From an uncultured Starkeya sp. (lineage in GTDB: Bacteria; Pseudomonadota; Alphaproteobacteria; Rhizobiales; Xanthobacteraceae), in NCBI GenBank assembly GCA_964543245.1, contig CAZIXP010000001.1, positions 49,882 to 113,881 of the forward strand: a DNA stretch of 64,000 bases, given 5' to 3'. The first letter of the stretch is position 1; every line of letters begins with the position of its first letter. The notes below the pieces were generated by a model. That model saw nothing but the letters and a program-made list of their open reading frames with translations. It was not told the origin of the DNA and did no database searches. The position numbers and the translations under genes are program-made. Shown piece by piece: positions 28,465 through 56,541 of the stretch.

Positions 28465-28469
28465 ACCTC

Positions 28470-37309: not shown

Positions 37310-37379
37310 GTGGCAGGCGTGGATCCCGGCTCCAGGCGGTATGCCGCCTGTCCCTCTCACGATCGAAAGGAGATTCCGT

Positions 37380-38491: not shown

Positions 38492-39150
38492 ATGGAGCTC
38501 ATTCCGGTCACAGAGAAGTTTTCCGTCGCGGGGCAACTTCAGCCCGAAGATTTCGCTAAGTTGCGTCGCCTCGGTTTCAGGAGCGTCATCAACAATCGTC
38601 CCGACGGCGAGGACCCGTCACAGCCGGGGACCAAGGCGGAAGAAGCGGCGGCCAGGGCGGCCGGTCTCGACTACGTGTTCATCCCCGTCACCAGCACCTC
38701 GATGACGGCGGACGATGCTCGCCGTTTCGCCGAAGCCATCGTCGCGTCGGACGGCCCCGTCCTGGCGCATTGCCATTCCGGCGCGCGTTCCTTCTACATG
38801 TGGGTGCTGGCCGGCGACGCGGACGTTCCGGGATTAAAGAATGACAAGTTCGTCGCCACGGCGAGCGGGACCGCACCGGACCACGCCCAGTTCCGGATCG
38901 CTGTGAGTCGAGGTCCAGCCAAACCAACGATGTAGGGTTTTTTCGATCCTCGCACTTGAGGCCGTCCGGCGCGTCGCCGGCGATCCGGCGATCAAATCAT
39001 GCGCCATCATCGATCCAGTCCTCGCCTGCGCCGAGAAGCCCGGAGCTGCCAGGACCGAACACGCCGACGGGATCCTCGCCAATTCGTCGAGCAGGTCCTG
39101 ATGGTCGAATGTATTTTCGACACCCAACCCCGCACGGCGTCCACCTGCGG
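38492..39150 (+). pseudogene. blh: Degraded Blh-like DUF442-PDO fusion gene
   Basis: Intact DUF442 domain (NNRPDGED, AHCHSGARS), then KPTM*GFFDPRT*, frameshifted SCAIIDPV and ECIFDTQP traces of the PDO N-terminus, then truncation. Confidence 0.75.
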
Positions 39151-39181: not shown

Positions 39182-39237
39182 CTGGCAGGGAGAGGACGCC
39201 AATGTTCTGAGTTTTGCACGCGACGGTCTCAATGGGC

Positions 39238-40135: not shown

Positions 40136-41995
40136 ATGCCGTTGCCTTCGAGAACTATCTCGTCCGTCCTTGTCGCGGTGCTGATGATCGCGATTGCCGC
40201 GATATCCACGCCGGCATCTGCGCAGGTGACGTCCACGGGAGGGATGCCGCTCCCCGTCGATCAGGCGTTCCAGCTCTCTGCGACGCGCGAAGGCGACGAG
40301 GGCGTCCGGCTGCAATGGACGATCGCGTCAGGCTACTATCTCTATCACGATAAATTCGGCGTCACGCAGGGCGCGTCCGACCTCGCGATGCCCGAACTCC
40401 AGGGCAACGGTCAAAGCAAAGACGATCCGACATTCGGCCCATCCACCGTCTTCCTTGACCACGTCGCCGCCGTGGTTCCTCTCGAAGCCTCGGCATCCGG
40501 CCCGCTCGAAGTCCACTATCAGGGATGTCAGGACAACGGCATCTGCTACCCGCCGATCATCCGGCATGTCGATGTCACGACACTCGCCGTGACCGATCCG
40601 CAGCAACGCGCACCGGCAACGCAGGCTCATGAATGGACAGCTCCCATTTCGGGGGCGCCGGCGCTGGCGAGCGGCGTCACCATCGCGGCGGATAATGGCG
40701 GCTTGATCGGCTCGCTGCTCAAAGACGGCGGCGTCGCGATGGTGCTGGCAAGCTTCCTGATGTTCGGCGTGCTGCTCGCCTTCACCCCTTGCGTGTTCCC
40801 GATGTACCCGATCCTCGCCGGAGCGATCGCGCGTCAGGGCGAGTCGGTCACAGCGGCCAGGGGTTTCAACCTGTCGCTCGCCTATGTCTTGGCCATGGCG
40901 ACCGCCTTCGGGCTCCTCGGCGTGGTCGCCGCCTGGTCGGGCCAGAATCTGCAGATGGCGCTTCAGTCTCCGCTCGCCATCGGCGCCGTCTCGATCCTGT
41001 TCGTCATCCTCGCCCTGTCCATGTTTGGCCTGTTCGAATTGCAGCTGCCATCGGCCTGGGTGAACGCCATCGGCCGTATCGGCCAGGGTGATCGCGGGTC
41101 GCTGGCCTCGGCCGCACTGCTTGGCTTCACCTCCGCGCTGATCGTCGGACCGTGCGTCACCGCACCGCTCGCTGGTGCGCTGATCTATATCGCGCAGACC
41201 GGCGACGTGGCGCTTGGCGCCGCATCGCTCTTCGCGCTCGGCCTCGGCAAGGGCATTCCGCTGATTGCCTTCGGCACGCTCGGTCCGAAAGCCTTGCCCA
41301 AGGCCGGGGCGTGGATGACCTCGGTGCGCCAGGCGTTCGGCTTCGTGTTCGTGGCCACCGCGATCTGGATGGTCTCGCGCCTCATCCCCGCCGAGGCCGG
41401 CCTTGCGCTCTGGGCCCTCTTTGCCATTGGTCTCGCGGTGTGGCTCGGAGCCTTCGATTCGCTCGGGCCCGACGCACCAGGGCGACGCCGGACCGCCAAG
41501 GCCGCCGGCATCGCCGCAGCCCTCTACGGCATCGTGCTCGCGGTCGGCGCCGCCAGCGGGGCCAATGACCCTTTCCGTCCCCTGAGCAACCTCGCCGCGT
41601 ACACGCGGGGCAGCGCCGGTTCTGCGCAAGCGCTGGCTTTCCGAAACGCGGCGACCCCGGCCGAGCTGCGAACCGGGCTTGCCGCAGGCAACGGCAAGCC
41701 AAGCCTCCTCTATGTCACGGCCGACTGGTGCATCACCTGCGCGGTCATCGATCGCAGCGTTCTTTCCGACCCCGCCGTCCAGTCCACGCTCGCCCGCTTC
41801 AATCTCATCAAGCTCGACGTCAGCGCCAACACGCCCGACCAGAGCCAGATCATGCAGAGCCTTCAGGTCGTCGGCCCACCGACAATGATCTTCGTCGGTC
41901 CTGAGGGACAGGAGACGACGGGAACCCGCCTCGTCGGCGACGTGACCAAGGCGACCTTGCGGGCCTCGGTCGAGCGTATGGGCCTGGTCCAATGA
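40136..41995 (+). CDS. dsbD: Protein-disulfide reductase DsbD
   Basis: alpha domain QGCQDNGICYPP, TM domain FTPCVFPM and GPCVTAPL, thioredoxin domain ADWCITC. Confidence 0.95.
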   Translation: MPLPSRTISSVLVAVLMIAIAAISTPASAQVTSTGGMPLPVDQAFQLSATREGDEGVRLQWTIASGYYLYHDKFGVTQGASDLAMPELQGNGQSKDDPTFGPSTVFLDHVAAVVPLEASASGPLEVHYQGCQDNGICYPPIIRHVDVTTLAVTDPQQRAPATQAHEWTAPISGAPALASGVTIAADNGGLIGSLLKDGGVAMVLASFLMFGVLLAFTPCVFPMYPILAGAIARQGESVTAARGFNLSLAYVLAMATAFGLLGVVAAWSGQNLQMALQSPLAIGAVSILFVILALSMFGLFELQLPSAWVNAIGRIGQGDRGSLASAALLGFTSALIVGPCVTAPLAGALIYIAQTGDVALGAASLFALGLGKGIPLIAFGTLGPKALPKAGAWMTSVRQAFGFVFVATAIWMVSRLIPAEAGLALWALFAIGLAVWLGAFDSLGPDAPGRRRTAKAAGIAAALYGIVLAVGAASGANDPFRPLSNLAAYTRGSAGSAQALAFRNAATPAELRTGLAAGNGKPSLLYVTADWCITCAVIDRSVLSDPAVQSTLARFNLIKLDVSANTPDQSQIMQSLQVVGPPTMIFVGPEGQETTGTRLVGDVTKATLRASVERMGLVQ

Positions 41996-44294: not shown

Positions 44295-45038
44295 CTAGCC
44301 AACCGCCAGATACGACATCATTGGGTCGGGGATGACGACGATCGGGCTGCCATCGCGAACCTCGTCATGGAGATGGATGACATCCTGATTGAGCAGCCGG
44401 ATGCAGCCGGACGAGACGGCATGACCGATCGAAAAGGCCTCGGGCGTGCCGTGCAGCCGATAGAGCGTGTCGCGCCCGCCTTCATGAATGTAAAGCGCGC
44501 GCGAGCCAAGCGGGTTGTTGAGTCCGGGGTCCATTCCGCCATTTGCGATGCTGTACGGCTCCAGCTCGGGCTGGCGGGCGACCATGCTGTCGGGCGGCGT
44601 CCAACGCGGCCATTTGCGCTTGTAGGCGACGATCGCGCGCCCCGACCATGCAAAGCCTTCGCGGCCGACGCCGATGCCATAACGCGTCGCGCGGCCCTCC
44701 GGCTTCACATGGTAGAGGTACTTGCCAGGCGTATCGACGATCAGCGTTCCTGGCCGCTCCTCTGTCGGATAGTCGACCTCCGTCCGCCAGAAGCGGCGAT
44801 CGACCTGGGAGACGTCGACCTCGGGAATGGGGAACGGCTCGTTCGGCATCGCCGTATACATCAGCGGAACCACGGGTTCCGGCTCGACCTTGACAACTGG
44901 CGCCATCATCGGGACCGGCTGGCGTGTCGATACGCAGCCCGCCAGTGTAAAGGCGCTGGCGCCGACCAGAAATGCGCGCCGTGCCAGCGGCCTGGAAAGT
45001 GTCGTTTTACTCAATTGTCTCTCAGCCTTCCGAATCAT
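44295..45038 (-). CDS. L,D-transpeptidase, Tat/lipoprotein signal
   Basis: ARRAFL..LAGC, RYGIGVGREG, NPLGSRALY, RLHGT...SSGCIRL. Confidence 0.93.
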   Translation of the reverse strand: MIRKAERQLSKTTLSRPLARRAFLVGASAFTLAGCVSTRQPVPMMAPVVKVEPEPVVPLMYTAMPNEPFPIPEVDVSQVDRRFWRTEVDYPTEERPGTLIVDTPGKYLYHVKPEGRATRYGIGVGREGFAWSGRAIVAYKRKWPRWTPPDSMVARQPELEPYSIANGGMDPGLNNPLGSRALYIHEGGRDTLYRLHGTPEAFSIGHAVSSGCIRLLNQDVIHLHDEVRDGSPIVVIPDPMMSYLAVG

Positions 45039-45070
45039 TCCGGTTCAGAACGCTCAAACGTCAGGGCCAC

Positions 45071-45087
45071 CTTAAGCCTGCCTTAAG
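45071..45087. promoter_or_regulatory. CTTAAG-N5-CTTAAG box between the L,D-transpeptidase and thioredoxin genes
   Basis: cttaag-cctgc-cttaag. Confidence 0.75.
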
Positions 45088-45127
45088 ACGGGAACTCACC
45101 GTTGCCTCGAACAACGGAGAGCCACAA

Positions 45128-45655
45128 ATGCTGATTTCGACCTGGAAGCTGGCAGACATTCACCGGAACGATCAGGGCGCGGGTGCCTGCGGTCATCGTC
45201 CGTCCCGGTCCGCGATCGTCGCAACGCGGCGTCAACTCCTGATCGGAGCTCTCAGCGTCGCGGCCGCTACCAGCCTTGCCGTTCCTGCCGGGGCCGCGGT
45301 CCTGACCGTCACCAACCTCGACCAATACCGAGGCGGTCTTGCACGCCTCGCTCCGCGCTACCGGACCGCGCTCGTCGACATTGGCGCGGAATGGTGCGCC
45401 TTCTGCAAGACCATTGATCAGAAGATCCTCCCGGACCCCGGCGTCCGGCGAGCCATGGAGCGAATTGCGCTGATCAAGGTCGACGTGACCAGAATGGGCC
45501 AGTCCAGCCGCGAGCTCCTTCGATACCTGCGCGCCGACGGGCCCCCAACGCTCTTCGTCGTGCAGACTGCGAGCGGACATGAATTCTCAGGCACGCGATC
45601 CGTCGGAGCCTTTCGAGCGAGTGACCTCGTCCGGCGCCTGCGCCCGTTCGCCTGA
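45128..45655 (+). CDS. Exported thioredoxin-family protein (DsbD gamma-like)
   Basis: TRRQLL signal, GAEWCAFCK, IKVDVT and GPPT; start uncertain. Confidence 0.8.
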   Translation: MLISTWKLADIHRNDQGAGACGHRPSRSAIVATRRQLLIGALSVAAATSLAVPAGAAVLTVTNLDQYRGGLARLAPRYRTALVDIGAEWCAFCKTIDQKILPDPGVRRAMERIALIKVDVTRMGQSSRELLRYLRADGPPTLFVVQTASGHEFSGTRSVGAFRASDLVRRLRPFA

Positions 45656-45686
45656 CATCGATACCGGTTTCAAGACATGCGGGAGC

Positions 45687-45700
45687 TTGATTGAGATCAA
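45687..45700. promoter_or_regulatory. Perfect FNR/FixK consensus box upstream of the triheme cytochrome-tsdA operon
   Basis: TTGAT-TGAG-ATCAA, 47 bp before the ATG. Confidence 0.75.
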
Positions 45701-45746
45701 CGCGTGCGTTGGGCCGCTCATGATACTTACATAATTACTGAAAGTA

Positions 45747-47099
45747 ATGGGGCGGATCGTGAAACTGTTCATCAAGCTAGCGCTATTCGCGATCTGCGGA
45801 CTTGGAATCTCCTATGCCTTCGCGATTTCCACCCCCTATTGGTTCAAGCCGAAGGCCGAGGCGCATGTCGACGTCACCGATGCCGCCCTGATCCGCCAGG
45901 GCGCGTATCTCGCGCGCGCAGGCGACTGCATCGCTTGCCACACCGCCCCTGGCGGCAAACCCTTCGCCGGCGGCCTCGGCATGCAGACGCCGATGGGCAC
46001 GATCTATTCGACCAACATCACGCCCGATGCTCAAACGGGTATCGGCGGCTACAGCTACGGCGACTTCGAGCGGGCCGTACGAAAAGGCATCCGGCCCGAC
46101 GGCACGCACCTCTACCCCGCCATGCCCTACGTCTCCTATGCTGTCGTCAAGGACGAGGACATCAAGGCGCTCTACGCCTACTTCATGTCGAGCGTCGAAG
46201 GGGTCCGGCAGGACAACCAGCCGACCACCATGCCTTGGCCGCTCAGCATGCGCTGGCCGCTTGCCTGGTGGCAGCTCATGTTCGCCCAGCCCCGCGACTT
46301 TGCCGCGACGACCACCGATCCGCAGCTCGTGCGCGGCGCCTATCTTGTCGAGGGCCTCGCCCATTGCGGCGCCTGCCATACGCCACGCGGCATCGCGTTT
46401 CAGGAAACGGCCCTCGCCGATGGCCCGAACAGCCGATTTCTGTCGGGCTCCGTCCTGGAGGGCTGGTACGCCAAAAACCTTCGCGATGAAGACACTGGCC
46501 TGTCGACCTGGACGGTCGATGAGATCGTCGATTTCCTGAAGACTGGCCGCAATGCCAAGACGGCGGCCTTCGGCTCGATGTCCGATGTCGTTGAGCATTC
46601 CACCCAGTATCTTGCGGCCGACGACCTGACGACGATCGCCACCTACCTCAAATCGCTGAACGCCCGCGACGGACGCAGCCCGACATGGCAGCCGAAGGAG
46701 GATCTCACCACCGCGGCCCTCAAGGCCGGCGATTTCAGCGCCCCCGGCGCCATGTCCTACGTCGAGCACTGCGCGACCTGCCACCGGATGGACGGCAAGG
46801 GCGCGCCGCGCATCTATCCGGCGCTCGCCGGAAACTCGATGGTCTTTGCCGATGATCCAAGCTCCCTCATCCAGGTGACGCTTGCCGGCGGGCGCATGCC
46901 CCGCACCCCGCATGACACCATGGCCTTCACCATGCCCGGCTTCGCTCACCTGACGAACCGCGAGGTCGCGGCGATGCTGAACTTCATCCGCAATGGCTGG
47001 GGCAATCACGGCAGCGAGATCACCGAGGCCGACATCTCGCGCATGCGTCATGAGATCGCGCGCAAGCCGAAGCACTACGTACCGGGAGAACAAGAATGA
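45747..47099 (+). CDS. Triheme cytochrome c, AdhB / gluconate dehydrogenase cytochrome-subunit family
   Basis: GAYLARAGDCIACH, STNITPD, GAYLVEGLAHCGACHTPR, CATCH; N-terminal membrane anchor. Confidence 0.9.
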   Translation: MGRIVKLFIKLALFAICGLGISYAFAISTPYWFKPKAEAHVDVTDAALIRQGAYLARAGDCIACHTAPGGKPFAGGLGMQTPMGTIYSTNITPDAQTGIGGYSYGDFERAVRKGIRPDGTHLYPAMPYVSYAVVKDEDIKALYAYFMSSVEGVRQDNQPTTMPWPLSMRWPLAWWQLMFAQPRDFAATTTDPQLVRGAYLVEGLAHCGACHTPRGIAFQETALADGPNSRFLSGSVLEGWYAKNLRDEDTGLSTWTVDEIVDFLKTGRNAKTAAFGSMSDVVEHSTQYLAADDLTTIATYLKSLNARDGRSPTWQPKEDLTTAALKAGDFSAPGAMSYVEHCATCHRMDGKGAPRIYPALAGNSMVFADDPSSLIQVTLAGGRMPRTPHDTMAFTMPGFAHLTNREVAAMLNFIRNGWGNHGSEITEADISRMRHEIARKPKHYVPGEQE

Positions 47100-48007
47100 C
47101 CAACCGCTCCCTCATCTTGACCGGGATCGCGATCGTGGCGATCACCGCAGCGGCCGGCATATTTGCGCTAACGCACCAGCGCACGCTGGATGCCCCGGTT
47201 AACGACGCAATCGCGATCCTGGACGCTACCGGCGCCCGCATCGGCGACTATCGCATTCCGCCGGACAGTTCGATCGCGCAAGAGCCCAATGCGGTTGCCA
47301 TCATGCTTGGCAAGCGGCTGCTGAACGAAACCGCGCGCCTGCTTCCCACCAATGTCGGCAACGGGCTCAACTGCAACTCCTGCCACATGGCTCAAGGCAA
47401 GCTCTCCGACGCCAACACCTACATCAATACAAGCAATTTCTATCCCGCCGTCATGCCCCGCGCCGGGCGCGTGGTCGATCTCGTCACGCGCATCAACGGC
47501 TGCTTCCAGCGATCGATGAACGGCAAGCCTCTCGCAGAGGACAGCTCCGAAATGCAGGCAATGGTCGCCTATATGGACTGGTTGCGGCAGGACGTGGCCA
47601 AAGGCGCCAGGGTTGCGGTCCGCAACGCCGGGCCGATCGACGACACTCTGATACCGGATCCCGAGAGAGGCCAGGCGATCTACGCCGCCCAGTGCGCCTC
47701 ATGCCATGGCGCCAATGGGCAGGGCATGAAAGACCAGTCCGGCGACTATATCTTCCCGCCGCTCTGGGGTGACGAATCGTTCAATATCGGCGCCGGCATG
47801 GCGAGAACTTACAAGGCGGCGCAGTTCGTCAAATATGCGATGCCGCCGGCCATGAACCTGATACCTCCGCTCGGAACGGGCGGCGTCCTCTCCGATCAGG
47901 ATGCCGTCGATGTTTCGGAATACTTCACCCACATGCCCCGTCCCGATTTCGCCGGAAAAGTGCACGACTGGCCCACAGGCAACAAGCCGGAGGACGCGCG
48001 TTATTAG
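47096..48007 (+). CDS. tsdA: Diheme thiosulfate dehydrogenase / tetrathionate reductase TsdA (copy 1)
   Basis: CNSCH, catalytic Cys in RINGCFQRSMNG, CASCH, PPLWGDESFNIGAGM, KYAMPP. Confidence 0.85.
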   Translation: MTNRSLILTGIAIVAITAAAGIFALTHQRTLDAPVNDAIAILDATGARIGDYRIPPDSSIAQEPNAVAIMLGKRLLNETARLLPTNVGNGLNCNSCHMAQGKLSDANTYINTSNFYPAVMPRAGRVVDLVTRINGCFQRSMNGKPLAEDSSEMQAMVAYMDWLRQDVAKGARVAVRNAGPIDDTLIPDPERGQAIYAAQCASCHGANGQGMKDQSGDYIFPPLWGDESFNIGAGMARTYKAAQFVKYAMPPAMNLIPPLGTGGVLSDQDAVDVSEYFTHMPRPDFAGKVHDWPTGNKPEDARY

Positions 48008-48038
48008 AACATGTCTTTTTCAAGGCTGAACCTGGTTT

Positions 48039-48055
48039 CTTAAGGTTGCCTTAAG
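48039..48055. promoter_or_regulatory. CTTAAG-N5-CTTAAG box upstream of the ccoN-like operon
   Basis: cttaag-gttgc-cttaag. Confidence 0.75.
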
Positions 48056-48125
48056 CTTGGTTTCCGAGCGCTGACCCCATGCGCCTGCCGCAAGAGCCAG
48101 GCCGCAAAGGGGGAGGGGTTAGCGC

Positions 48126-49700
48126 ATGGTGACGATGGGACTGTTGTTGGCGTTGAGCTTCGCCGTGTCGCTGCTCGCGCTCGCGTTCCTGATCTGGGCG
48201 ATCAGCAACAAGCAGATCAAGCTCGACCAGCAAGACGCCAAGGTGATCTTCGCCGCGGGCGACGAGAACCACCTTGACAGCCCCGACGCCGAGCAATCGC
48301 CCGCCAGGCGACATTACTTCGACACCGTCACCACCGGCATCGACCACATATCCATGAGGCCGGCGGCCGTCCTTCTCGTCGCGGCCACCCTATGGCTGCT
48401 CGTCGGTTCGGCCTTCGGCCTCATCGCCTCGCTGAAGCTGCATTGGCCGGACTGGCTTTCCGCCTACGCACCGCTCACCTTCGGCCGCGTCCGCACGCTA
48501 CACCTCAACCTTGTCATCTACGGGTGGCTGTCGCAGGCCGGCATCGCCGCGATGATCTGGGTTTTGCCGCGCATCTTCCACACGCCGCTGCGCGCGCCCC
48601 GGATGCCGATCATCGGAGCGGTCCTCTGGAACATCGCCGTGGCGCTGGGAGCCGTCGCGATCGCCAACGGCTGGACGGATGGCGAGGAGTGGCTGGAAAT
48701 TCCCTGGCAGCTCGACATGCTGTTGGCGCTGGCCGGCGTCTTCTTCGTCATCCCGCTGGTGAAGACGACGCTCGCTCGGGAGGTCCACCACATCTATGTG
48801 AGCGGCTGGTACTTCCTCGCGGGAATCCTCTGGTTCCCCTGTCTCTTCGTCATTGCAAATCTGCCCTACATCCATTCGGGCGTCGAAGAGGCCACGGTGA
48901 ACTGGTGGTTCGCGCACAATGTGCTGGGCCTCTGGCTGACGCCGCTCGGCGTGGGAACGGCCTACTACTTCATTCCGAAAATCATCGGCAAACCGATCTA
49001 TTCCTATTCCGTCTCACTGCTTGGATTCTGGGGCCTCGCACTCTTCTACAGCCAGGTGGGCATCCATCATCTGATCGGCGGACCGGTGCCGACCTGGGTC
49101 GTGACGCTCTCCATCGTTCATTCGGTGATGATGTTCATCCCGGTGATCGCGGTGGCCATCAACCAGCATGTCACGGTCGCCCGCAATCTCTGGGCCCTGA
49201 AAGAATCGCTGCCGTTGCGCTTCATATCCTTCGGCGCCGTCATGTATACGCTGGCGTCGTTCCAGGGTTCGATCGAGGCGCTGCGCTCGGTCAACACGGT
49301 CACGCATTTCACGCACTACACGGTCGGGCACGCCCATCTCGGCGCCTACGCCTTCGTGACGATCGTCATGTTCGGCGCTGCCTATCACATGCTGCCGCGC
49401 ATGACCGGCCGGGCCTTCCAGTGGCCGGCTCTGATCAACGCTCACTTCTGGCTGATCGTCGTCGGCTTCGCGATCTACTTTTTCGGGCTTTCGATCGGTG
49501 GCGTGCTGCAGGGCCTCGCCATGCTCGATGCGACACGTCCGTTCTCTGACAGCGTCATCCTCACGATCCCTTACCTCGAGGCGCGCAGTCTCGGCGGCAG
49601 CCTTATGACGCTTGGCCACATCCTCTTCGCCGTCAATGTCGCCGCCATCCTCATTCCGCGCCGGGCATCGGCGGCCGCACGCGTGGTGCCCGCCGAATGA
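48126..49700 (+). CDS. ccoN: Divergent cbb3-type (C-family) oxidase subunit I with a CcoS-like N-terminal extension
   Basis: RTLHLN, WWFAHN, FYSQVGIHH and GHAHLG give all six His ligands and the helix VII Tyr. Confidence 0.85.
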   Translation: MVTMGLLLALSFAVSLLALAFLIWAISNKQIKLDQQDAKVIFAAGDENHLDSPDAEQSPARRHYFDTVTTGIDHISMRPAAVLLVAATLWLLVGSAFGLIASLKLHWPDWLSAYAPLTFGRVRTLHLNLVIYGWLSQAGIAAMIWVLPRIFHTPLRAPRMPIIGAVLWNIAVALGAVAIANGWTDGEEWLEIPWQLDMLLALAGVFFVIPLVKTTLAREVHHIYVSGWYFLAGILWFPCLFVIANLPYIHSGVEEATVNWWFAHNVLGLWLTPLGVGTAYYFIPKIIGKPIYSYSVSLLGFWGLALFYSQVGIHHLIGGPVPTWVVTLSIVHSVMMFIPVIAVAINQHVTVARNLWALKESLPLRFISFGAVMYTLASFQGSIEALRSVNTVTHFTHYTVGHAHLGAYAFVTIVMFGAAYHMLPRMTGRAFQWPALINAHFWLIVVGFAIYFFGLSIGGVLQGLAMLDATRPFSDSVILTIPYLEARSLGGSLMTLGHILFAVNVAAILIPRRASAAARVVPAE

Positions 49701-50317
49701 ACCGCTATCTTCCCCTTTCGATCATCGCGCTCGGCATCCTGGCTTTCGCAACCTTGCTGCTTGTCATCGCGCCGGGCATCCAGATCGGCCGTCACGACGC
49801 TCCGCCTGGTCTGGAGCCCTATACCGAGCAGCAATTGCGCGGCCGCCAGGTCTACGTGTCGCTCGGCTGCGTCTACTGTCACAGCCAGCAACCGCGATCG
49901 CCCGACCAGGCGCCCGACGGCGCACGGGGCTGGGGACGTCCGGCCATTGCCGCGGATTACACCTACGATGCGCCCCATCAGCTTGGGACAATGCGCACCG
50001 GACCCGATCTCCTGAACGTCGGCGCAAGACTGCCGTCACGGGACTGGCACCTGGCCCATCTCTATCAGCCGCGCGCCATCTTCGACTGGAGCATCATGCC
50101 GGCCTATCCTTTCCTCTTCGAGGTCAAGGGTGCCCCCGGTCCCGGCGACGTTGTCGTCTCCATGCCTTCCGGCTTTGGGCCCGAAGCAGGCGTTATCGTC
50201 GCCAAGCAGGACGCGCTTGATCTCACCGCCTATCTGCTGTCCCTCGACCGTACATATCCGGCGCCCGCCGACGCCATTCGCGACGATGGCTACCGCCGTC
50301 CGGAGGGCACGCCATGA
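49697..50317 (+). CDS. ccoO: cbb3-type oxidase subunit II-like monoheme cytochrome
   Basis: GRQVYVSLGCVYCHSQQPR, RTGPDL and SIMPAY. Confidence 0.88.
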   Translation: MNRYLPLSIIALGILAFATLLLVIAPGIQIGRHDAPPGLEPYTEQQLRGRQVYVSLGCVYCHSQQPRSPDQAPDGARGWGRPAIAADYTYDAPHQLGTMRTGPDLLNVGARLPSRDWHLAHLYQPRAIFDWSIMPAYPFLFEVKGAPGPGDVVVSMPSGFGPEAGVIVAKQDALDLTAYLLSLDRTYPAPADAIRDDGYRRPEGTP

Positions 50318-51561
50318 CCGCTGACAAAAAGCAGGAAGCGGAGCGCTCTTCTCGCATCGACGAAACCTTCGAGCCCTACGAACTGCACGGCAAGATGCCA
50401 TGGCCGCTGATCGCGTTCGCCGTCGGACTCGGTCTCTGGGGCGTTGCCACGCTGTTCGAGACGCGAGAGGACGTTGTTGGCGCTCAGGCGGAGCGCGTCG
50501 CTCGAAGCCATACGGAAACCGGCGTGGCGACTGAACCCGGCGCGCCGCTCTTCCTCGCCCGGTGCTCGACATGTCATCAGCCGGACGGCTTGGGCGTGCG
50601 CGGCGCCATCCCTCCGCTTGCCGGCTCTGCCTTCGTCGCTCACGGGCCGGAGCTTGTCGCAACGATCCTGCTGCGCGGCATTGATGGACCGATCCGTGTT
50701 GGCGACCATGTCTTTAACGGGCACATGCCGAGCTTCTCCAGTGTGCTCACGGATGTCGAAATCGGCGAGCTCGCAACCTATGTCGCACGTCGCTTCGGCA
50801 CGTCGTCCGACAGCCTTAACGCTCCGGATGTGGCCATGCTGCGCGATCGTGTCGCCGGCAGCGGCAGCTTCAAGGGCGGGGCCGAGATTGCGTCGTCCAC
50901 CGACCTCGATCTGGGCCATCAGCCGGCCTTCGTCCCTGCGACCGCCATGTCGCTCACCCCGGAAGTGTCCGCGCTGGTCTTCACCGGCCGCGGCGAGCAA
51001 TGGGCTTGCGCAAGCTGTCACGGCGATCTCGGCCAGGGCAAGGAGAATACCCCGCGCCTCGCCGGCCTTTCCGCCGATTACATCGTCAAGCAGCTCGGCG
51101 ACTTCGCGGCGGGCCGTCGCCTCAACGAATCCATGCGGTTGATCGTGGCCTCGCTGTCCGATGAGGAAAAGCGCCAGCTCGGCGACTATTACGCCGCGCT
51201 ACGCGTGCCATCGAACGCCCGGCCCGATCTCGGCGGGAGCCTCGCGCGCGGCGAGGCTCTCGCGCTTCATGGCGACTGGAGCCGCAACGTCCCGGCCTGC
51301 TTCTCCTGTCATGGGCCCTCCGGCTTCGGCGTCGCACCCGAATTCCCGCCGATCGCCGCCCAGCATGCCGCCTACACCGCGAGCCAGCTTGCGGCATGGG
51401 CCGGGGGCCATCGCAACAATTCTCCGCTCGATCTGATGGGGCGGATCTCACGCGAACTCAGCGACGCCGATCGAAGGGCCGTGGCCGACTACCTCGCCTC
51501 CCTCCCTCCAGTGCCAGCAGGAGACGACACCCAGATCGCGGAAATCGGAGAACATCCATGA
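50314..51561 (+). CDS. Membrane-anchored triheme cytochrome c: monoheme domain fused to a TsdB/c4-like diheme unit
   Basis: TM segment, then CSTCH, CASCH and GDWSRNVPACFSCHGP. Confidence 0.85.
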   Translation: MTADKKQEAERSSRIDETFEPYELHGKMPWPLIAFAVGLGLWGVATLFETREDVVGAQAERVARSHTETGVATEPGAPLFLARCSTCHQPDGLGVRGAIPPLAGSAFVAHGPELVATILLRGIDGPIRVGDHVFNGHMPSFSSVLTDVEIGELATYVARRFGTSSDSLNAPDVAMLRDRVAGSGSFKGGAEIASSTDLDLGHQPAFVPATAMSLTPEVSALVFTGRGEQWACASCHGDLGQGKENTPRLAGLSADYIVKQLGDFAAGRRLNESMRLIVASLSDEEKRQLGDYYAALRVPSNARPDLGGSLARGEALALHGDWSRNVPACFSCHGPSGFGVAPEFPPIAAQHAAYTASQLAAWAGGHRNNSPLDLMGRISRELSDADRRAVADYLASLPPVPAGDDTQIAEIGEHP

Positions 51562-52592
51562 CAGAGCCTGCGGAGAGCCTTGCCGCCAAACCAGCCGATC
51601 CTCAGAGAGGGCGGATTGCACGATGGTGGATCCACGCAGCCGGCGCTGGCATCATCGCCGCCGCCCTGGGAGCGCTCGCCTACGAAAGCGGCATCATCCC
51701 AGGACGACAAACGTCGCAGCAAGTCGCCGGGCCTGCCACGGCTGGCTTCTTCCAGCCTCCGGCCGACGACCAGATTCCCGACGACGAGTTCGGCGCCGCC
51801 ATCCGTCGGGGGCAGGCGATCTTCATGAACACCTCGACCAATGCATCCCAATATGTGGGCAACGGCCTGTCCTGTTCGAACTGCCATCTCGGCGCCGGCC
51901 GCCAGCCATTCTCCGCCCCGATGTGGGCTGCCTGGGGCCAGTATCCCCGCTACCGGTCGAAGAACAACCAGATCAACACGATGGAAGATCGCGTGCAAGG
52001 GTGCTTCACCTTCTCCATGAACGCCCAACACTCGGTTGCCGGTGGGCCTCCGCCGCATGGCGATGACATCTATCGCGATCTTCAAAGCTACTTCTACTGG
52101 CTTGCTAGCGGCGCCCCCAACAACGAGCTGATGAGCGGCGCCGGATTTGGCAGAGTGGCCAGGACCGAGCTCGGCTACTCTCCCGAGCGCGGCGCCCAAG
52201 TGTTCGCGGCCAACTGCGCCGTCTGCCACGGTGCCGAGGGTCAGGGCCAGATGGACATCAACGATCGCTATGTCTTTCCGCCGCTCTGGGGTCCGAATTC
52301 CTACAATTGGGGTGCCGGCATGGCCCGCATCGACACGGCTGCGGCCTTCATCAAGCACAACATGCCATTGTCCCAGCCCGGCCGGCTGACCGATCAGGAG
52401 GCGTGGGACGTCGCCGCCTATATCAACAGCTTCGAGCGTCCGAAGGATGCGAGACAGCAGGGGCGCACGATCGAGGAAACGCGCCGACTCTACCACGATG
52501 GCGATGAGATCTATTACGGACAGGTCGTCAACGGCGTGCTTCTGGGCGTCGGCACCCCCGATCCGGTGCGGCCGGTCGGCGCCGTGGACTGA
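51558..52592 (+). CDS. tsdA: Diheme thiosulfate dehydrogenase TsdA (copy 2), membrane-anchored
   Basis: CSNCH, RVQGCFTFSMN, CAVCH, PPLWGPNSYNWGAGM, KHNMP. Confidence 0.88.
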   Translation: MTEPAESLAAKPADPQRGRIARWWIHAAGAGIIAAALGALAYESGIIPGRQTSQQVAGPATAGFFQPPADDQIPDDEFGAAIRRGQAIFMNTSTNASQYVGNGLSCSNCHLGAGRQPFSAPMWAAWGQYPRYRSKNNQINTMEDRVQGCFTFSMNAQHSVAGGPPPHGDDIYRDLQSYFYWLASGAPNNELMSGAGFGRVARTELGYSPERGAQVFAANCAVCHGAEGQGQMDINDRYVFPPLWGPNSYNWGAGMARIDTAAAFIKHNMPLSQPGRLTDQEAWDVAAYINSFERPKDARQQGRTIEETRRLYHDGDEIYYGQVVNGVLLGVGTPDPVRPVGAVD

Positions 52593-52597
52593 CCGCC

Positions 52598-54748
52598 ATG
52601 CGCCGGCTCGTCGCGGTCGAGGGCATGGCATGCGGCGGCTGCGCGCGCGGGCTGGAAAAGCGTCTCAGCCAACTCGAAGGCGTCAACAGCGTCGGCGTCC
52701 ACCATCTGACCGCATCCATGCTGGTCGATTGGGACGAGGCGAGGACATCGATCGCCAAGATCGCGTCCGTCGTCTCGAGCGCCGGGTATGCCCTGGTCGA
52801 CCGGCATCAGCCCGACGAACTATCGGCAATGCTTTCTGGAGATATTCGCCGGCTGAGCCTTCGCCTTGCCGTCGCCGTGATGGCAGGGATGTGGTCGATG
52901 GCGCTCGCCGTCGTACTCTACGTCTCCGACATCGATGCGACAGTCGCCTGGTGGATCGCGCTCGCCTCCGGCGTCCTGGCGCTGCCGGTCCTGCTCTGGG
53001 CGGGAGCTGGCATCTTCTGGATGGCCTTCCGATCAGTCCGACTGCGTACGCCCACCATGGATCTACTGATCGCCTTGGGCGCCGGCGGCGCATTTGCTCT
53101 CTCTTTGGTGTCACTCGCGTCCGGATCATCGCATGTCTATTTCGACACCGCGACAATGCTGATCACGCTTCTCCTTCTCGGGCGTCTCGTCGATCTGATC
53201 ACCAGGCGCAGCGCAATCGATGCGTTGAAGGCTCTCGAAGAGGCTTCCGTGGAGACGGCCGTAAGACGCACCGCTTCGGGGAACAAAGTTGTCCCATGCA
53301 GTGAGGTCGAGATCGGCGATCGGGTCGTCATCGACGCCGGCGCGGCGATCAGTGTCGACGGGATCATCCAGGAGGGCCGGAGCCTCATCAACCGCGCGGT
53401 CCTGACAGGTGAAAGCCATCCGCTTCCGGTCGGCGCCGGGCAACGCGTCGAGGCGGGCGCGATCAATCTCGAAAGGCGCCTCATCGTTTCGGTCGACCGT
53501 GCCCATGGAGATCGCGACCTTGATCGTATGGGCGGCGCGATCATGCTGGAGCTTGCCCGGCGCGGCACGCTCGCCTCACGCGCCGACCGTCTCGCCGGCG
53601 TGCTGAGCTGGGGAATCCCGGGATTGGCGCTGCTCACTGCGGTCACGCTGCCGCTCGCAGGGGTCGCGGGAGCAGACGCCATTCTGAGGGGGCTGACGGT
53701 GCTTGCCGCAGCCTGCCCGTGCGCTTTGTCGATCGCCGCGCCGCTTGCACAGGCGCGCGCGGCCGGCATCGCGGCGAGACTCGGCCTGCGGCTCCGGGAT
53801 CCTGTCGCTTTTGAATCGCTCGCCCAGCCGGCAACAGCCATCTTCGACAAGACGGGTACTCTGACCACAGGCCTCCCCTCAGTGGTTGAGGTCGCTGCTG
53901 CCAAGGGCTGGAGCAAAGACGATGTGCTGCGGCTTGCTGCAATTGCCGAAACCGGGATCGATCATCCTCTGGCGCGGGCGATCGTCGCACGACACGGCCG
54001 TGAAGAAGGCGCGGGCGGGACGCGGCGGGAACGCAGCGCCGAGGCAAGGGATCGCGACGGTCGTTGCATCAGCGTCTATGGAATCGATCGCGACGACGGC
54101 ATGACCTCGCTTGCCGTGAGCCTCGACGATGTCGTCATCGGCTCCCTCGGCCTCGCCGATGCTCCCACCGGCCAAGCGCGCGGGACCGTCGACCGGTTCC
54201 GGGAGATGGGTATCGACATGTGGATTGCGTCCGGAGACGGCGGCGGTCCGACGTTGCGGGTCGCGAAGCCTCTCGGTATTCCCGCGCCCCGCGTCCGTTA
54301 CGGCTGCACGCCGGCAGACAAGGTTGAGCTCGTGAAAGCCGCAACCGCTCCTGTTCTCTTCGTCGGGGATGGCGTTAACGACGCTCCGGCGCTCGCCGCC
54401 GCCGATTGCGGCATTTCCGTTGCCGGTGCCCATAGCGCCGCTGCGCGAACCGCGGACGTGGTCATCGTCAATGGCGGGATCGATCAGCTCGTGTCTGCGA
54501 TCGCGCTTGCCCGTCGCACGGTCGCAATCACCCGACAGAACGTGGGCCTCGCCATGATCTACAACCTGTTGGCCGTCCCGTTGGCAATTGCGGGCACGCT
54601 GTCGCCGTCCCTAGCGGCCCTCGCCATGCTCGCGAGTTCGTCGTCGGTCGCGTTCAACAGCTTGCGTTTAGAACCATCAGGGACGTCCGCCCCGCCGGCA
54701 AAAGCGGCGCCCCAGTCCGCAGAACTCTGCGACGAGCCTGTTGGTTAG
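52598..54748 (+). CDS. Cu-type P1B ATPase, CcoI/FixI-like
   Basis: N-terminal [29 protein letters not shown] and MLASS. Confidence 0.88.
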   Translation: MRRLVAVEGMACGGCARGLEKRLSQLEGVNSVGVHHLTASMLVDWDEARTSIAKIASVVSSAGYALVDRHQPDELSAMLSGDIRRLSLRLAVAVMAGMWSMALAVVLYVSDIDATVAWWIALASGVLALPVLLWAGAGIFWMAFRSVRLRTPTMDLLIALGAGGAFALSLVSLASGSSHVYFDTATMLITLLLLGRLVDLITRRSAIDALKALEEASVETAVRRTASGNKVVPCSEVEIGDRVVIDAGAAISVDGIIQEGRSLINRAVLTGESHPLPVGAGQRVEAGAINLERRLIVSVDRAHGDRDLDRMGGAIMLELARRGTLASRADRLAGVLSWGIPGLALLTAVTLPLAGVAGADAILRGLTVLAAACPCALSIAAPLAQARAAGIAARLGLRLRDPVAFESLAQPATAIFDKTGTLTTGLPSVVEVAAAKGWSKDDVLRLAAIAETGIDHPLARAIVARHGREEGAGGTRRERSAEARDRDGRCISVYGIDRDDGMTSLAVSLDDVVIGSLGLADAPTGQARGTVDRFREMGIDMWIASGDGGGPTLRVAKPLGIPAPRVRYGCTPADKVELVKAATAPVLFVGDGVNDAPALAAADCGISVAGAHSAAARTADVVIVNGGIDQLVSAIALARRTVAITRQNVGLAMIYNLLAVPLAIAGTLSPSLAALAMLASSSSVAFNSLRLEPSGTSAPPAKAAPQSAELCDEPVG

Positions 54749-54911
54749 GCGCGGTTAGAGTGCCGCTTCGTGGGCGGCTTGCGAATGGAGCTTCGTCGCC
54801 GACAAGATGCGAGATACTCGGTTCCAATCTTCGCGAAGATCGCCAGCCGGCGTACCCAGGACGAGCAGCTGAGCCCGCAAGCTTAAGAGCCGGTCAAGGA
54901 TCGATGATCCG

Positions 54912-55307
54912 TCAACGCAGTCGTGCGAAGTTGGCGGCGCCCTCGATCACGTGCTCTCGTTTCTGACTCGCTTCCGGCCGCGTCATCTTGAGAAGCATTT
55001 GTTCAGGATTGCCGGCGCCGAATACCGCCTCGATGCTGCGCACGCACAAAACAACGGGTTCGCCGGCAAGGCTGTAATAGACCTGCTTGGCCTGACGACG
55101 CGTCGTGACCAGCTCAGCCTTGCGGAGCTCGGCGAGCTGCTGGCTGAGCGCTGGCTGCCCGATGCCGGTTGCCACGTCCATTTCCGTCACCGACTTTTCC
55201 CCTTCGAGGAGAAGGGAAAGGATCATCAACCGTTGCGATTGCGCGAACTTGCGCAGCTTGTCGGCCGCGGCCTCGGCTTGCGCCCGGGACTGCCATAGCG
55301 CCTTCAT
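54912..55307 (-). CDS. ArsR family regulator (third copy, lacks the BigR cysteine pair)
   Basis: RLMILSLLLEGEKSV, QPALSQQLAELR; start overlaps the prx stop. Confidence 0.85.
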   Translation of the reverse strand: MKALWQSRAQAEAAADKLRKFAQSQRLMILSLLLEGEKSVTEMDVATGIGQPALSQQLAELRKAELVTTRRQAKQVYYSLAGEPVVLCVRSIEAVFGAGNPEQMLLKMTRPEASQKREHVIEGAANFARLR

Positions 55308-55924
55308 CCATCTCTCCGGCAGAACCAGTCGGACTCGTGCTGCGCCTTTTCTTCGGCCGGCAGGAGAAGCGGCTGCCCCGGCTGCCAATCAGCCGGAGCA
55401 AGCTTCTCGCCGGAATGGGTGGCCTGCAGCGCCGCCACCATCCGCAGCATTTCGTCGACCGAACGTCCGATGGTCAGCGGATAGTGCGTGATCGCCCGGA
55501 TGACGCCCTCCGGGTCGATGAAGTAACTCGCCCGAACTCCCGCGCTGTTCTCCGCCGTCTCGTCGATCATACCGTAGGTGCGACCGACGAGCATGGACGG
55601 GTCCTCGATCACCGGAAACGGGATTTCCACCGAAAAGAGCTCACGAATGGAGCGGGCCCAGGCGACATGCGCATAGAGGCTGTCGACCGACAGACCGAGA
55701 AGTGCGCAATCGAGCGCAGCGAAACGATCGTGCGCTTTGGCGAGCGCCACGAACTCTGTGGTGCAGACCGGCGTGAAGTCCGCCGGGTGCGCAAAGAACA
55801 GCAGCCACCGGCCCTTGTAGTCGGAAAGCCGGATCGGACCTTGGGTGGAACGGGCCTCGAAATCAGGAGCGGCGTCGCCCATACGCAGGGTCCGGGGAGG
55901 TATGCGGATCGATACGTCGTTCAT
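55304..55924 (-). CDS. Peroxiredoxin (Prx6-type, second copy)
   Basis: HPADFTPVCTTEF, VRASYFIDP and DWFC. Confidence 0.92.
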   Translation of the reverse strand: MNDVSIRIPPRTLRMGDAAPDFEARSTQGPIRLSDYKGRWLLFFAHPADFTPVCTTEFVALAKAHDRFAALDCALLGLSVDSLYAHVAWARSIRELFSVEIPFPVIEDPSMLVGRTYGMIDETAENSAGVRASYFIDPEGVIRAITHYPLTIGRSVDEMLRMVAALQATHSGEKLAPADWQPGQPLLLPAEEKAQHESDWFCRRDG

Positions 55925-55990
55925 CGAAGCTGTGGTCTCGAAAGCGTCACTTACGTGTTTGTCGTATGGCGCGCCGCCTGACGCAATACG

Positions 55991-56005
55991 ATTACACAGT
56001 TACAC
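55991..56005. promoter_or_regulatory. Operator-like motif upstream of prx-arsR, shared with 38447-38461
   Basis: attacacagttacac, the reverse complement of gtgtaactgtgtaat. Confidence 0.55.
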
Positions 56006-56149
56006 GGTTCGTTGAATAGATAAATGAAGAGGCGACGCGGCCGGCTTCGAATCCCGAGGAAGACGGCCGGTTCCAACCCACGGCCCGTCCACGCGGTCAT
56101 CGCTGCTTCACTGCCCGACCTGGGAGAATTCCGTGATCAAGCGTACTTC

Positions 56150-56171
56150 GGTGTTGACCAGGTGTTGACCA
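56150..56171. repeat. Perfect tandem 11-bp repeat (ggtgttgacca x2) near the island end
   Basis: Read directly; lies 66 bp from the tRNA 3' end. Confidence 0.85.
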
Positions 56172-56176
56172 GCTTC

Positions 56177-56212
56177 AAAAAAGGGGGAAGCCGCCCTTGG
56201 GCGGCTTCCCTT
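56177..56212 (-). terminator. Rho-independent terminator of tRNA-Gly
   Basis: gggaagccgcc-cttg-ggcggcttccc stem followed by a T6 tract on the minus strand. Confidence 0.8.
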
Positions 56213-56237
56213 AAACCTCTGAGTTTCAAAGAGAAAC

Positions 56238-56312
56238 TGGAGCGGGCGAAGGGATTCGAACCCTCGACCCCAACCTTGGCAAGGTTGTGCTCTACCCCTG
56301 AGCTACACCCGC
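56238..56312 (-). tRNA. tRNA-Gly (anticodon GCC) with encoded CCA
   Basis: GCGGGTGTAGCTCAGGGGTAGAGCACAACCTTGCCAAGGTTGGGGTCGAGGGTTCGAATCCCTTCGCCCGCTCCA. Confidence 0.97.
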
Positions 56313-56541
56313 ACCGCTCCTCGGCGTGGCGACCTGTTTGGCCGCCCCCGAACGCGGCGTTCTATGCCCCATGCCGCAGACGATTGCAACGGGGTGGTGA
56401 CGTTTCTTTCCACAGGGCTGTGGACATCGGCATGCCGGAAGATTCCCGCGCGGTCGCCAGCGGCGTCTTGTGCCAGACACCAGAATATGGGAGGCCGGAT
56501 CGCGGATCGTGCGCAGCGTCCGCCTCGTGGAGGATCATCCC

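Follow-up and report, generated by a model that had tools for sequence, protein, structure and literature searches.

A CcoP-less cbb3-type oxidase operon with TsdB and TsdA: a candidate thiosulfate-to-oxygen branch in Proteobacteria

The operon and its gene products

The window analyzed here, a stretch of 64,000 nucleotides from an uncultured Starkeya sp. (contig CAZIXP010000001.1, assembly GCA_964543245.1), carries an operon in which the genes of a divergent cbb3-type oxidase stand together with those of the thiosulfate dehydrogenase TsdA and its cytochrome partner TsdB. We consider it probable that this operon encodes a dedicated thiosulfate-to-O2 branch, in which a tethered TsdA would pass electrons through TsdB hemes in the third oxidase subunit to a cbb3-type O2 reductase that lacks CcoP. 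An earlier reading of the same DNA, made from the sequence alone (the sequence-only reading), had proposed five tightly coupled genes at this locus, and all five are found where it placed them on the + strand. It missed the CcoS-like extension of the first gene product, as well as a second TsdA module and a shared operator-like box upstream, both described below.

48126-49700, + strand: ccoN, subunit I of a C-family heme-copper oxidase, 524 aa (Pfam, NCBIfam, alignment to 3mk7_A)
48126-48305, + strand: CcoS/FixS-like N-terminal extension of CcoN, about 60 aa, with a transmembrane segment at residues 5-23 and an AxxIFxxGE tail
49697-50317, + strand: ccoO, monoheme subunit II, 206 aa (ATGA overlap with ccoN; FixO match)
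50314-51561, + strand: subunit III, an anchored triheme cytochrome c (three CxxCH motifs, one transmembrane helix, TsdB/c4 matches)
51558-52592, + strand: tsdA, 344 aa, a diheme thiosulfate dehydrogenase whose hydrophobic N-terminus is an anchor or a signal (matches to 5lo9 and to TsdA of A. vinosum)
52598-54748, + strand: P1B-type Cu ATPase, CcoI-like by operon position (TIGR01525; HMA, CPC and DKTGT motifs)

Read from the sequence, the first three junctions are ATGA overlaps and the last, between tsdA and the ATPase gene, is a 5-bp gap. The Shine-Dalgarno sequence GGGGGAGGGG precedes the ccoN start, and a scan for sigma-70 promoters gave zero matches. The overlapping genes leave no intergenic room for ccoQ and a CcoP-type gene is likewise not present in the operon, so that the absence of canonical ccoQ and ccoP, pointed out in the sequence-only reading, holds.

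CcoN matches both Pfam COX1 (E 2e-79) and TIGR00780, the ccoN model (E 1.6e-81), and is divergent because its TIGR00780 score of 274.6 bits falls under the 583-bit equivalog cut-off. The same pattern is seen for TIGR00781 (ccoO), at 103.5 bits against a cut-off of 200.7, and for TIGR00782 (ccoP), at 47.7 against 180. Since the scores stay under the equivalog cut-offs, the oxidase is a subfamily apart from canonical CcoNOQP. When aligned to CcoN of P. stutzeri (3mk7_A, E 3.7e-67), the residues H60, H207, H257, H258, H345 and H347 of that structure all correspond to His in the window protein, and Y308 (in FYSQVGIHH) corresponds to Y251, the helix-7 active-site Tyr. The six His ligands and this Tyr are invariant across the clade (16 members for the His), and E122 (the Ca-site Glu), S240, Y223 and Y317 are also kept. 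Relative to P. stutzeri, H243 is replaced by Gly and E323 by Gln; the latter was considered as a peculiarity of the clade and dropped, as most non-canonical C-family representatives share the Gln.

These residues bear on the possibility that the heme-copper enzyme is an NO reductase or an inactive relative, which would fit scores lying far under the ccoN and ccoO cut-offs and the loss of CuB histidines from some distant representatives retrieved in the same search. We find it scarcely credible, however, given that the six His, the Ca-site Glu and the helix-7 Tyr, a residue that separates O2 reductases from cNOR, are conserved and clade-invariant, that the only cNOR match is marginal (4xyd, E 4.5e-4), and that a Cu ATPase and a CcoS-like element lie alongside. 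With the full set of six His ligands and the active-site Tyr in place, the oxidase reads as an O2 reductase, and the original call of a C-family subunit I with all heme and CuB ligands is upheld. The same is true of CcoO, which matches FixO (PF02433, E 4e-30) and TIGR00781 (E 1.4e-29) and has a single CVYCH motif and an N-terminal transmembrane helix.

The N-terminal extension is not found in 3mk7 CcoN, with which the alignment begins at residue 84. In the window protein it matches Pfam FixS (PF03597) at E 0.0047 and 17.1 bits, under the 23.1-bit gathering cut-off, and TIGR00847 weakly (E 0.1), while FixS is the top match of the extension in 14 of 14 clade members (best E 1.1e-4). An outgroup locus (L083; L numbers denote surveyed loci) has a free-standing FixS gene immediately upstream of ccoN. 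A fusion of CcoS to CcoN is the likely reading.

The third gene product has a transmembrane helix at residues 30-48 and CxxCH motifs at residues 84, 232 and 329, distributed over two domains, a class-I cytochrome c with one heme (about residues 73-200) and a diheme part of TsdB/c4 type (about 216-400). Residues 230-402 match the TsdB half (residues 19-194) of the M. purpuratum TsdBA structure 5lo9 at E 6e-29 and cytochrome c4 at E 5e-26. In an AlphaFold2 model (mean pLDDT 79.4) a long helix at the N-terminus stands beside a class-I domain with one heme and a c4 domain. The best Foldseek matches are the TsdB part of 5lo9, with a root-mean-square deviation of 1.7 A over 186 columns, and c4 of the P. 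aeruginosa bc1-cbb3 supercomplex (8smr_K, TMt 0.84), on both of which the c4 domain superposes. With these matches and the membrane helix, the earlier description of an anchored triheme cytochrome whose last two hemes are TsdB/c4-like is confirmed.

TsdA matches 5lo9 over residues 41-333 (E 1.2e-84) and the A. vinosum enzyme (4wqc/4wq7) at E about 3e-49, and contains two CxxCH motifs, CSNCH and CAVCH. By alignment its ligands are His110 and Cys149 at heme 1 and His224 and Met269 at heme 2, with Cys149 corresponding to the heme-1 ligand Cys96 of A. vinosum TsdA. The Asn268-Met269 pair is aligned to residues 208/209 of A. vinosum, and M. purpuratum TsdBA has the identical pair.

The last gene encodes a P-type ATPase with a heavy-metal-associated (HMA) motif GMACGGC, an ACPCAL (CPC) motif and DKTGT, scoring 393 bits against TIGR01525, over the cut-off. 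It follows tsdA in 59 of the 80 loci surveyed below, and an ATPase gene also follows the oxidase genes in the outgroups L083 and L084 and in a sister cluster at L061. The motifs and score bear out the Cu ATPase of the sequence-only reading, and the CcoI-like label is a candidate one resting on this conserved position behind the oxidase genes. Two further P-type ATPases are encoded in the window.

Linkage to tsdA and descent of the oxidase

The linkage of this oxidase to tsdA was surveyed by a CcoN-seeded scan in which each GTDB species was represented by one genome and a clade alignment served as query. The scan gave at least 581 matches, sister clades included, which is not a count of carriers, and the best 80 loci (59-99% identity) were taken. 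Of the 80, 75 have a tsdA gene downstream of ccoN at a distance of no more than 4 kb, and three of the five exceptions are contigs that end early. Two loci without tsdA, L043 and L045 (the same as L118 and L125), have an efflux pump in its place and are taken up again below. A second CcoN-seeded scan recovered mostly the same loci, and all six additional ones have the full cluster. When pooled, the loci give 93 distinct ccoN sequences with enough flanking DNA; in 91 of them tsdA follows downstream within 4 kb and in two it does not, and the linkage extends over Alpha-, Beta- and Gammaproteobacteria. Seeding with TsdA gave the reciprocal picture: ccoN-ccoO lies upstream in 42 of 45 informative loci, and the linkage is lost only at TsdA identities of about 50% or lower. 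A neighborhood survey had been named as a check on the sequence-only reading, and it finds this CcoN clade linked to tsdA from both sides.

The carriers include Paracoccus, Thioclava, Brevundimonas, sphingomonads, Brucella/Ochrobactrum and Azospirillum thiophilum. The cluster is further found in Bordetella, Alcaligenes, Pusillimonas, Massilia, Pandoraea, Stenotrophomonas and Luteimonas, and in Halomonas, Marinobacter, Spiribacter and Pseudomonas paraeruginosa. In 59 complete loci, CcoN, CcoO, the TsdB domain, TsdA and the ATPase diverge in parallel, with pairwise protein distances correlated at r 0.81-0.93 (Mantel 0/999 permutations), consistent with inheritance of the five genes as one unit.

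Across the clade, the gene after ccoO begins in the same way. In 71 of 71 loci its product starts F(E/D)P(Y/W/F)E, followed by a Pro and a transmembrane helix with a conserved W-G, and this motif and anchor are present whether the protein has one, two or three hemes. The three-heme form of the window, monoheme domain plus TsdB, occurs in 44 of the 71 loci, mainly Alphaproteobacteria and Xanthomonadales. An anchored TsdB alone, with two hemes, is found in 22 loci (Betaproteobacteria and P. paraeruginosa), and a one-heme form followed by a separate TsdB gene in five (Halomonas, Marinobacter and Spiribacter). Taken together, the monoheme-TsdB fusions and the TsdB-TsdA fusion known from 5lo9 would chain the oxidase to TsdA, which speaks in favor of the sequence-only reading.

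The CcoN clade is isolated. In an exhaustive search of 1.84 billion representatives the nearest sequences outside it have identities of 52%, 49%, 49% and 43%, and canonical CcoN is about 32-36% identical to the clade. The outgroup oxidases, at 41-52% identity, lack TsdBA; their ccoN-ccoO and anchored monoheme cytochrome c occur together with genes of alternative complex III (ACIII) or with SCO1, an ATPase or a separate FixS. The contexts seen among these relatives are ccoN-ccoO-monoheme c-SCO1, ACIII genes-FixS-ccoN-ccoO-monoheme c-P-type ATPase, and ACIII genes further upstream of ccoN-ccoO-monoheme c. In Marinobacter (L061, 398-5568; L148, 388-2992) a second, paralogous cluster without tsdBA lies beside the tsd-linked one and encodes CcoS-CcoN (54% identical), CcoO, an anchored monoheme cytochrome and a P-type ATPase; this probably represents the ancestral architecture.

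Because the outgroups carry ccoN-ccoO-monoheme c without TsdBA, the anchored monoheme cytochrome is the original subunit III of the lineage. TsdBA was gained by the proteobacterial clade as a donor module where its relatives have ACIII, a swap on a conserved oxidase core. The sequence-only reading had the triheme protein replace CcoP. The CcoP position is indeed occupied by an anchored cytochrome, but what does the replacing is the ancestral monoheme part, with TsdB as an addition.

From thiosulfate to oxygen: the proposed route and its alternatives

In the proposed route, TsdA, tethered at the outer face of the inner membrane, would oxidize two thiosulfate to tetrathionate at its Cys-ligated heme. 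Electrons would pass from heme 2 of TsdA to the two c4-type (TsdB) hemes of the triheme protein, then to its monoheme domain and, with the triheme protein in the subunit-III (CcoP) position, to the heme c of CcoO, heme b and the heme b3-CuB center of CcoN, where O2 would be reduced and a proton gradient built. The P1B ATPase and the CcoS-like extension of CcoN would serve copper supply and maturation. The gene content, ligand residues, anchors, fusions and conserved linkage are seen in the sequences; the path of the electrons from carrier to carrier, the joining of four subunits in a stable complex and the pumping of protons are what we infer. A bypass of quinone and bc1, which the sequence-only reading had emphasized, is expected of any TsdA and is no special property of the cluster, because the tetrathionate/thiosulfate couple reportedly lies near +198 mV (Kurth et al. 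2015).

Experiments published on carriers of the cluster, or their close relatives, bear on the first step. A tsdA deletion mutant of P. thiocyanatus SST formed no tetrathionate and its thiosulfate-dependent O2 uptake was 40-50% lower, and the gene ahead of tsdA was described as "cbb3 subunit III-like" (bioRxiv 10.1101/683490). The locus of the P. thiocyanatus type strain (L011) has the order ccoN-ccoO-triheme-tsdA-ATPase, with a TsdA 72% identical to that of the window. The cluster that thiosulfate induces in E. flavus 21-3 (D0Y83_01340-01450) includes tsdB (01390), tsdA (01395, 36 kDa) and, two genes past tsdA, a SoxB-like 5'-nucleotidase (01405), and deletion of tsdA abolishes thiosulfate oxidation (PMC7608252). 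The syntenic locus of a Qipengyuania metagenome-assembled genome (MAG; L169) reads ccoN-ccoO-triheme-tsdA-ATPase-SoxB-like 5'-nucleotidase-metallo-beta-lactamase (MBL)/rhodanese (SdoA-like). The induced cluster of E. flavus thus very probably includes the oxidase genes, which go unmentioned in the published account (PMC7608252). At L169 itself, the 5'-nucleotidase and the MBL plus rhodanese protein occupy 13131-16368 behind the cluster, matching the E. flavus order. The knock-outs of orthologues in P. thiocyanatus SST and E. flavus lend indirect support, by analogy, to the catalysis of 2 thiosulfate to tetrathionate by the window TsdA.

The opposite direction of catalysis must also be considered, as TsdA enzymes work both ways, and the operon TsdA could be mainly a tetrathionate reductase, as in Campylobacter jejuni, with an oxidase that is merely adjacent. 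The window enzyme has an Asn before the heme-2 Met, as does C. jejuni TsdA, and the paralogue encoded upstream is paired with a quinone-reactive-type triheme cytochrome that would suit quinol-to-tetrathionate flow. Yet the identical Asn-Met pair occurs in M. purpuratum TsdBA, an enzyme adapted to thiosulfate oxidation, a comparison that covers the residues and not the catalytic direction, and an O2 reductase gives no electron source for tetrathionate reduction. In addition, tsdA knock-outs of the P. thiocyanatus and E. flavus orthologues no longer make tetrathionate out of thiosulfate (10.1101/683490; PMC7608252). We regard a mainly reductive role as very improbable.

A more serious alternative is that the genes are co-regulated neighbors only. 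The oxidase would then be a general CcoP-less cbb3 variant whose c4-type subunit takes electrons from any periplasmic donor, and TsdA would be one loose or soluble donor among these, with no stable complex formed. Several observations point this way or weigh against a dedicated branch. L043 and L045, two alphaproteobacterial MAGs, have ccoN-ccoO and an anchored c4-type diheme cytochrome with room for tsdA but no such gene, and the sister and outgroup oxidases have other donor modules or none nearby. Conversely, the three unlinked loci of the TsdA-seeded scan (L211, L213 and L214) are Burkholderiales MAGs whose TsdA is about 48-50% identical, and H. titanicae has tsdBA without this oxidase nearby (PMC9237845). 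Because of these unlinked tsdBA loci and the two oxidase loci without tsdA, neither TsdA nor this oxidase strictly needs the other. The co-variation of distances among the five genes is equally expected from shared vertical descent. The c4 cytochromes are general donors to cbb3 oxidases, as the 8smr match recalls. CcoP is missing from the best 50 Foldseek matches of the subunit-III model. The subunit-III anchor was also tried as a homologue of the CcoP N-terminus, an idea that came from a presumed likeness of F-E-P-Y-E...P...W to E-E-Y-D-N-P-L-P-x-W-W in CcoP. This found no support: none of 14 subunit-III N-termini matched FixP_N, and a search of the PDB with their profile found no CcoP.

Outside genomes, the sequence was found in metagenomes plus a few metatranscriptomes only. 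Contigs from activated-sludge metatranscriptomes (runs X25 and X26) blanket 45000-56500 and span the junctions tsdA2-ccoN, ccoN-ccoO, triheme-tsdA and tsdA-ATPase, with every junction crossed by contigs of X25. Their depth is flat, at about 3-7 and over convergent genes as well, against 192 at the tRNA, which is compatible with both low expression and DNA carry-over.

The N-terminal stretch of the window TsdA is of moderate hydrophobicity (KD19 1.54) and closes on ALA|YE, a possible signal-peptidase site at which cleavage would give a soluble TsdA. The orthologues have a stronger hydrophobic segment within the roughly 90 residues that precede the catalytic domain; it has a KD19 of at least 1.3 in 72 of 75 sequences and at least 1.6 in 61, and bears the Gly-rich motif A.GGGL.LFA.G.L....G, with a majority fraction of 0.44 compared with 0.28 and 0.34 in its flanks. 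An AxA site is missing from most of them, which favors a retained anchor, and a transmembrane segment was predicted for H. titanicae TsdA by its authors (PMC9237845). The sequence-only reading had a membrane-anchored TsdA with its catalytic Cys. The Cys (Cys149) is there, and the anchor, favored in the orthologues, is less certain for the window protein, where the segment is moderate and possibly cleavable.

Against an association by co-regulation alone stand the near-universal, two-way linkage inside the clade, the translational coupling of the three ATGA junctions, the fusion of TsdB to the anchored subunit in 44 loci and the motif-bearing hydrophobic TsdA N-terminus in 72 of 75 orthologues. 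We consider this alternative rather unlikely. The dedicated branch is also favored by the fold of the TsdB domain, which matches the c4 docked on cbb3 in 8smr.

The operon can be placed among known systems as follows. With canonical CcoNOQP and ccoGHIS (P. stutzeri 3mk7, Rhodobacter, FixNOQP of Bradyrhizobium) it shares the metal ligands and cross-link Tyr of CcoN, CcoO, an anchored c-type third subunit, a Cu P1B ATPase and a CcoS-like element. It differs in having no CcoQ, in the fusion of the CcoS-like part to CcoN and in the lack of ccoG or ccoH nearby, and its third subunit, unlike CcoP, has no FixP_N-like N-terminus, those of the clade carrying one heme or c4-type hemes. With TsdA/TsdB systems (5lo9; A. 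vinosum 4wq7) it shares the His/Cys heme 1, the His/Met heme 2 and a c4-type TsdB directly upstream, 5lo9 being the closest solved structure for both TsdA and the TsdB domain. Classical Tsd systems are soluble periplasmic proteins that donate to high-potential iron-sulfur protein (HiPIP) or soluble cytochromes, whereas here TsdB is fused to an anchored oxidase subunit (or replaces it in some relatives), the pair lies inside an oxidase operon, and TsdA has an N-terminal hydrophobic anchor and a C-terminal extension.

The P. aeruginosa bc1-c4-cbb3 supercomplex (8smr/8snh) likewise brings a c4-type diheme donor to cbb3 at close range. There the donor is bc1 (quinol), c4 is separate and CcoP is present, whereas in the window TsdA would take the role of donor and the anchored subunit itself includes the c4 module. 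ACIII-caa3/cbb3 clusters and the ACIII-aa3 supercomplex of Flavobacterium are also known, and the nearest CcoN outgroups sit right after ACIII genes. The shared principle is a donor module genetically attached to an oxidase, but ACIII is a quinol oxidase donor and these clusters have no TsdA or TsdB. Lastly, DoxDA of Acidianus and Acidithiobacillus is a membrane-bound thiosulfate:quinone oxidoreductase that converts thiosulfate to tetrathionate and feeds the respiratory chain. Its proteins are unrelated, have no hemes c and pass electrons to quinone, in contrast to the terminal oxidase proposed as the acceptor here. That TsdB may feed cbb3 oxidases is an existing idea, found in the discussion of PMC9237845 with reference to Kurth 2016. 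In full-text literature and the TsdA papers we found no description of a tsdBA-ccoNO operon, though Kurth 2016 and Denkmann 2012 may mention one.

Neighboring genes, mobility and meaning

Upstream of the operon lie a second TsdA module, a set of Dsb genes and a two-component system, among which copies of an operator-like box are scattered:

35176-36582, - strand: QseC-like histidine kinase (NCBIfam QseC 265 bits)
36579-37244, - strand: PmrA/QseB-like response regulator (NCBIfam PmrA 229 bits, QseB 209 bits)
37293: box, between the DsbA-like gene and the response regulator/histidine kinase pair (their promoter region)
37341-38018, + strand: DsbA-like gene (box at 37293)
39165: box, before DsbG
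39214-40029, + strand: DsbG (289 bits, over the cut-off; box at 39165)
40075: box, before DsbD
40136-41995, + strand: DsbD (box at 40075)
45071-45087, no strand: CTTAAG-N5-CTTAAG box copy, ahead of thioredoxin-like, triheme and TsdA2 genes
45747-47099, + strand: second module gene 1, triheme cytochrome c, a homologue of the quinone-reactive cytochrome subunit of membrane alcohol/glucose/fructose dehydrogenases
47096-48007, + strand: second module gene 2, TsdA paralogue, 303 aa, ATGA overlap with gene 1, 34% identical to the operon TsdA
48039-48055, no strand: box copy CTTAAGGTTGCCTTAAG, operator-like, upstream of ccoN and 87 nt from its start codon

The triheme cytochrome of the second module matches 8gy2_B (E 4e-118) and 8hdd_B (E 1.4e-105) and has three CxxCH motifs and an N-terminal transmembrane or signal segment. 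Its TsdA paralogue matches A. vinosum TsdA at E 1e-47 and keeps both the Cys ligand (INGCF) and the Met (KYAMP). The module ends 119 bp upstream of ccoN and stands beside the cluster also in L002-L008, L190, L193-L205 and S. maltophilia L166. From its composition it may have a quinol:tetrathionate or thiosulfate:quinone function, and the potentials would make quinol-to-tetrathionate flow the likelier direction, which we offer as speculation.

CTTAAG-N5-CTTAAG occurs five times in the window compared with 0.01 expected. The box is invariant in an alignment of seven upstream regions, Roseibium among them, and lies upstream of ccoN in 19 of 79 loci, at 78-121 nt (291 nt in L022 and L023). Its periodicity of 11 bp, together with the likeness to the PmrA box YTTAAK-N5-YTTAAK, fits a regulator of the OmpR family. 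The five boxes suggest one regulon with the PmrA/QseB-QseC-like pair, whose PmrA, QseB and QseC scores are all under the equivalog cut-offs, as candidate regulators. QseBC-like and Dsb genes also flank the tsd genes in A. thiophilum, and likewise in H. titanicae (PMC9237845). A plausible inference from the Dsb link is that periplasmic thiols are shielded from tetrathionate.

Marks of a candidate mobile element are spread around these genes:

149-1348: TrbI, a conjugation gene
9553-10716: IS110 transposase
56238-56312: tRNA-Gly, at the end of a low-GC stretch

The GC content steps from 0.64 to 0.72 at 56-57 kb. From 45084 to 56079 the window shares 99% identity with a Chelatococcus caeni DSM 103737 contig, and this identity stops at about 56.1-56.3 kb; wastewater and sludge metagenomes also hold identical or near-identical sequence to the region. 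Among the annotated ORFs of the window there is no integrase or relaxase, and the left end of the element lies beyond it. TrbI, the transposase, the tRNA-Gly border and the GC step suggest that the first 56 kb or so are part of an island resembling an integrative and conjugative element (ICE). A 16-17.5-kb segment, running from a methyltransferase gene to a peroxiredoxin gene with both Tsd modules inside, is 99.99% identical in an Ancylobacter sp., a Tardiphaga MAG and Shinella granuli (L003, L004 and L005) and 97% identical in two more MAGs. The 99.99% identity indicates either very recent transfer between genera or contamination. A complete cluster with a CcoN 87% identical is present on plasmid unnamed2 (90,874 bp; L191) of a Neorhizobium sp., and the Paracoccus copies are on large secondary replicons. 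A plasmid collection returned just partial matches, at about 79% identity and to large, unannotated replicons of Paracoccus. The mobility proposed in the sequence-only reading is well supported for the cluster in general, by the Neorhizobium plasmid and the near-identical copies in three genera, and is probable for the window copy, given TrbI, IS110, the tRNA-Gly border and the GC step.

The island also has sulfur-related cargo. At 4958-11864 and 38492-38935 there are genes for a Blh-type sulfur dioxygenase (588 bits), a YeeE-like DUF6691 protein, a SulP permease, a type-III-like sulfide:quinone oxidoreductase (SQR) and a TIGR01244 sulfurtransferase, and thiosulfate made from sulfide by such enzymes could feed TsdA. 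A second terminal oxidase of the island, cytochrome bd, is represented by subunit I CydA (E 3e-176) next to CydDC-type ABC transporters at 22959-29600; bd oxidases tolerate sulfide. Convergent with the operon ATPase gene, a 1-Cys peroxiredoxin gene and then an ArsR/BigR-like regulator gene lie at 54912-55924 on the - strand. The regulator scores 72 bits against the BigR model, under the cut-off, and its ORF overlaps the peroxiredoxin gene by 85 nt, so that the true start is probably the Met at about 55307. This pair is kept only in the closest relatives, L001-L008.

The oxidase operon with TsdBA is a variant of the known cbb3 oxidase and TsdAB systems and no new category, but it is widespread and has not been annotated as such. 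We would go further only tentatively, to the possibility that CcoN, CcoO, the (monoheme plus) TsdB cytochrome and an anchored TsdA assemble into a single stable complex that ICEs and plasmids have spread and that serves heterotrophic Proteobacteria of soils, sludge and the sea as their main energy-yielding route from thiosulfate to tetrathionate. If true, this would be a thiosulfate:oxygen oxidoreductase, a whole respiratory chain in one particle with a dehydrogenase as an integral subunit of a proton-pumping oxidase.

Many heterotrophic bacteria oxidize thiosulfate to tetrathionate and some of them gain energy from it. The route from TsdA to O2 has previously been left as "probably via TsdB and a cbb3 oxidase", and the cluster offers a concrete genetic answer, in carriers that include genetically tractable strains with existing tsdA knock-outs. 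The exchange of ACIII for TsdBA as donor module on one oxidase core bears on the evolution of respiratory supercomplexes. Where genomes are now annotated with "cbb3 oxidase subunit I" and "c-type cytochrome", thiosulfate oxidizers could be recognized, which would alter the inference of sulfur cycling from metagenomes.

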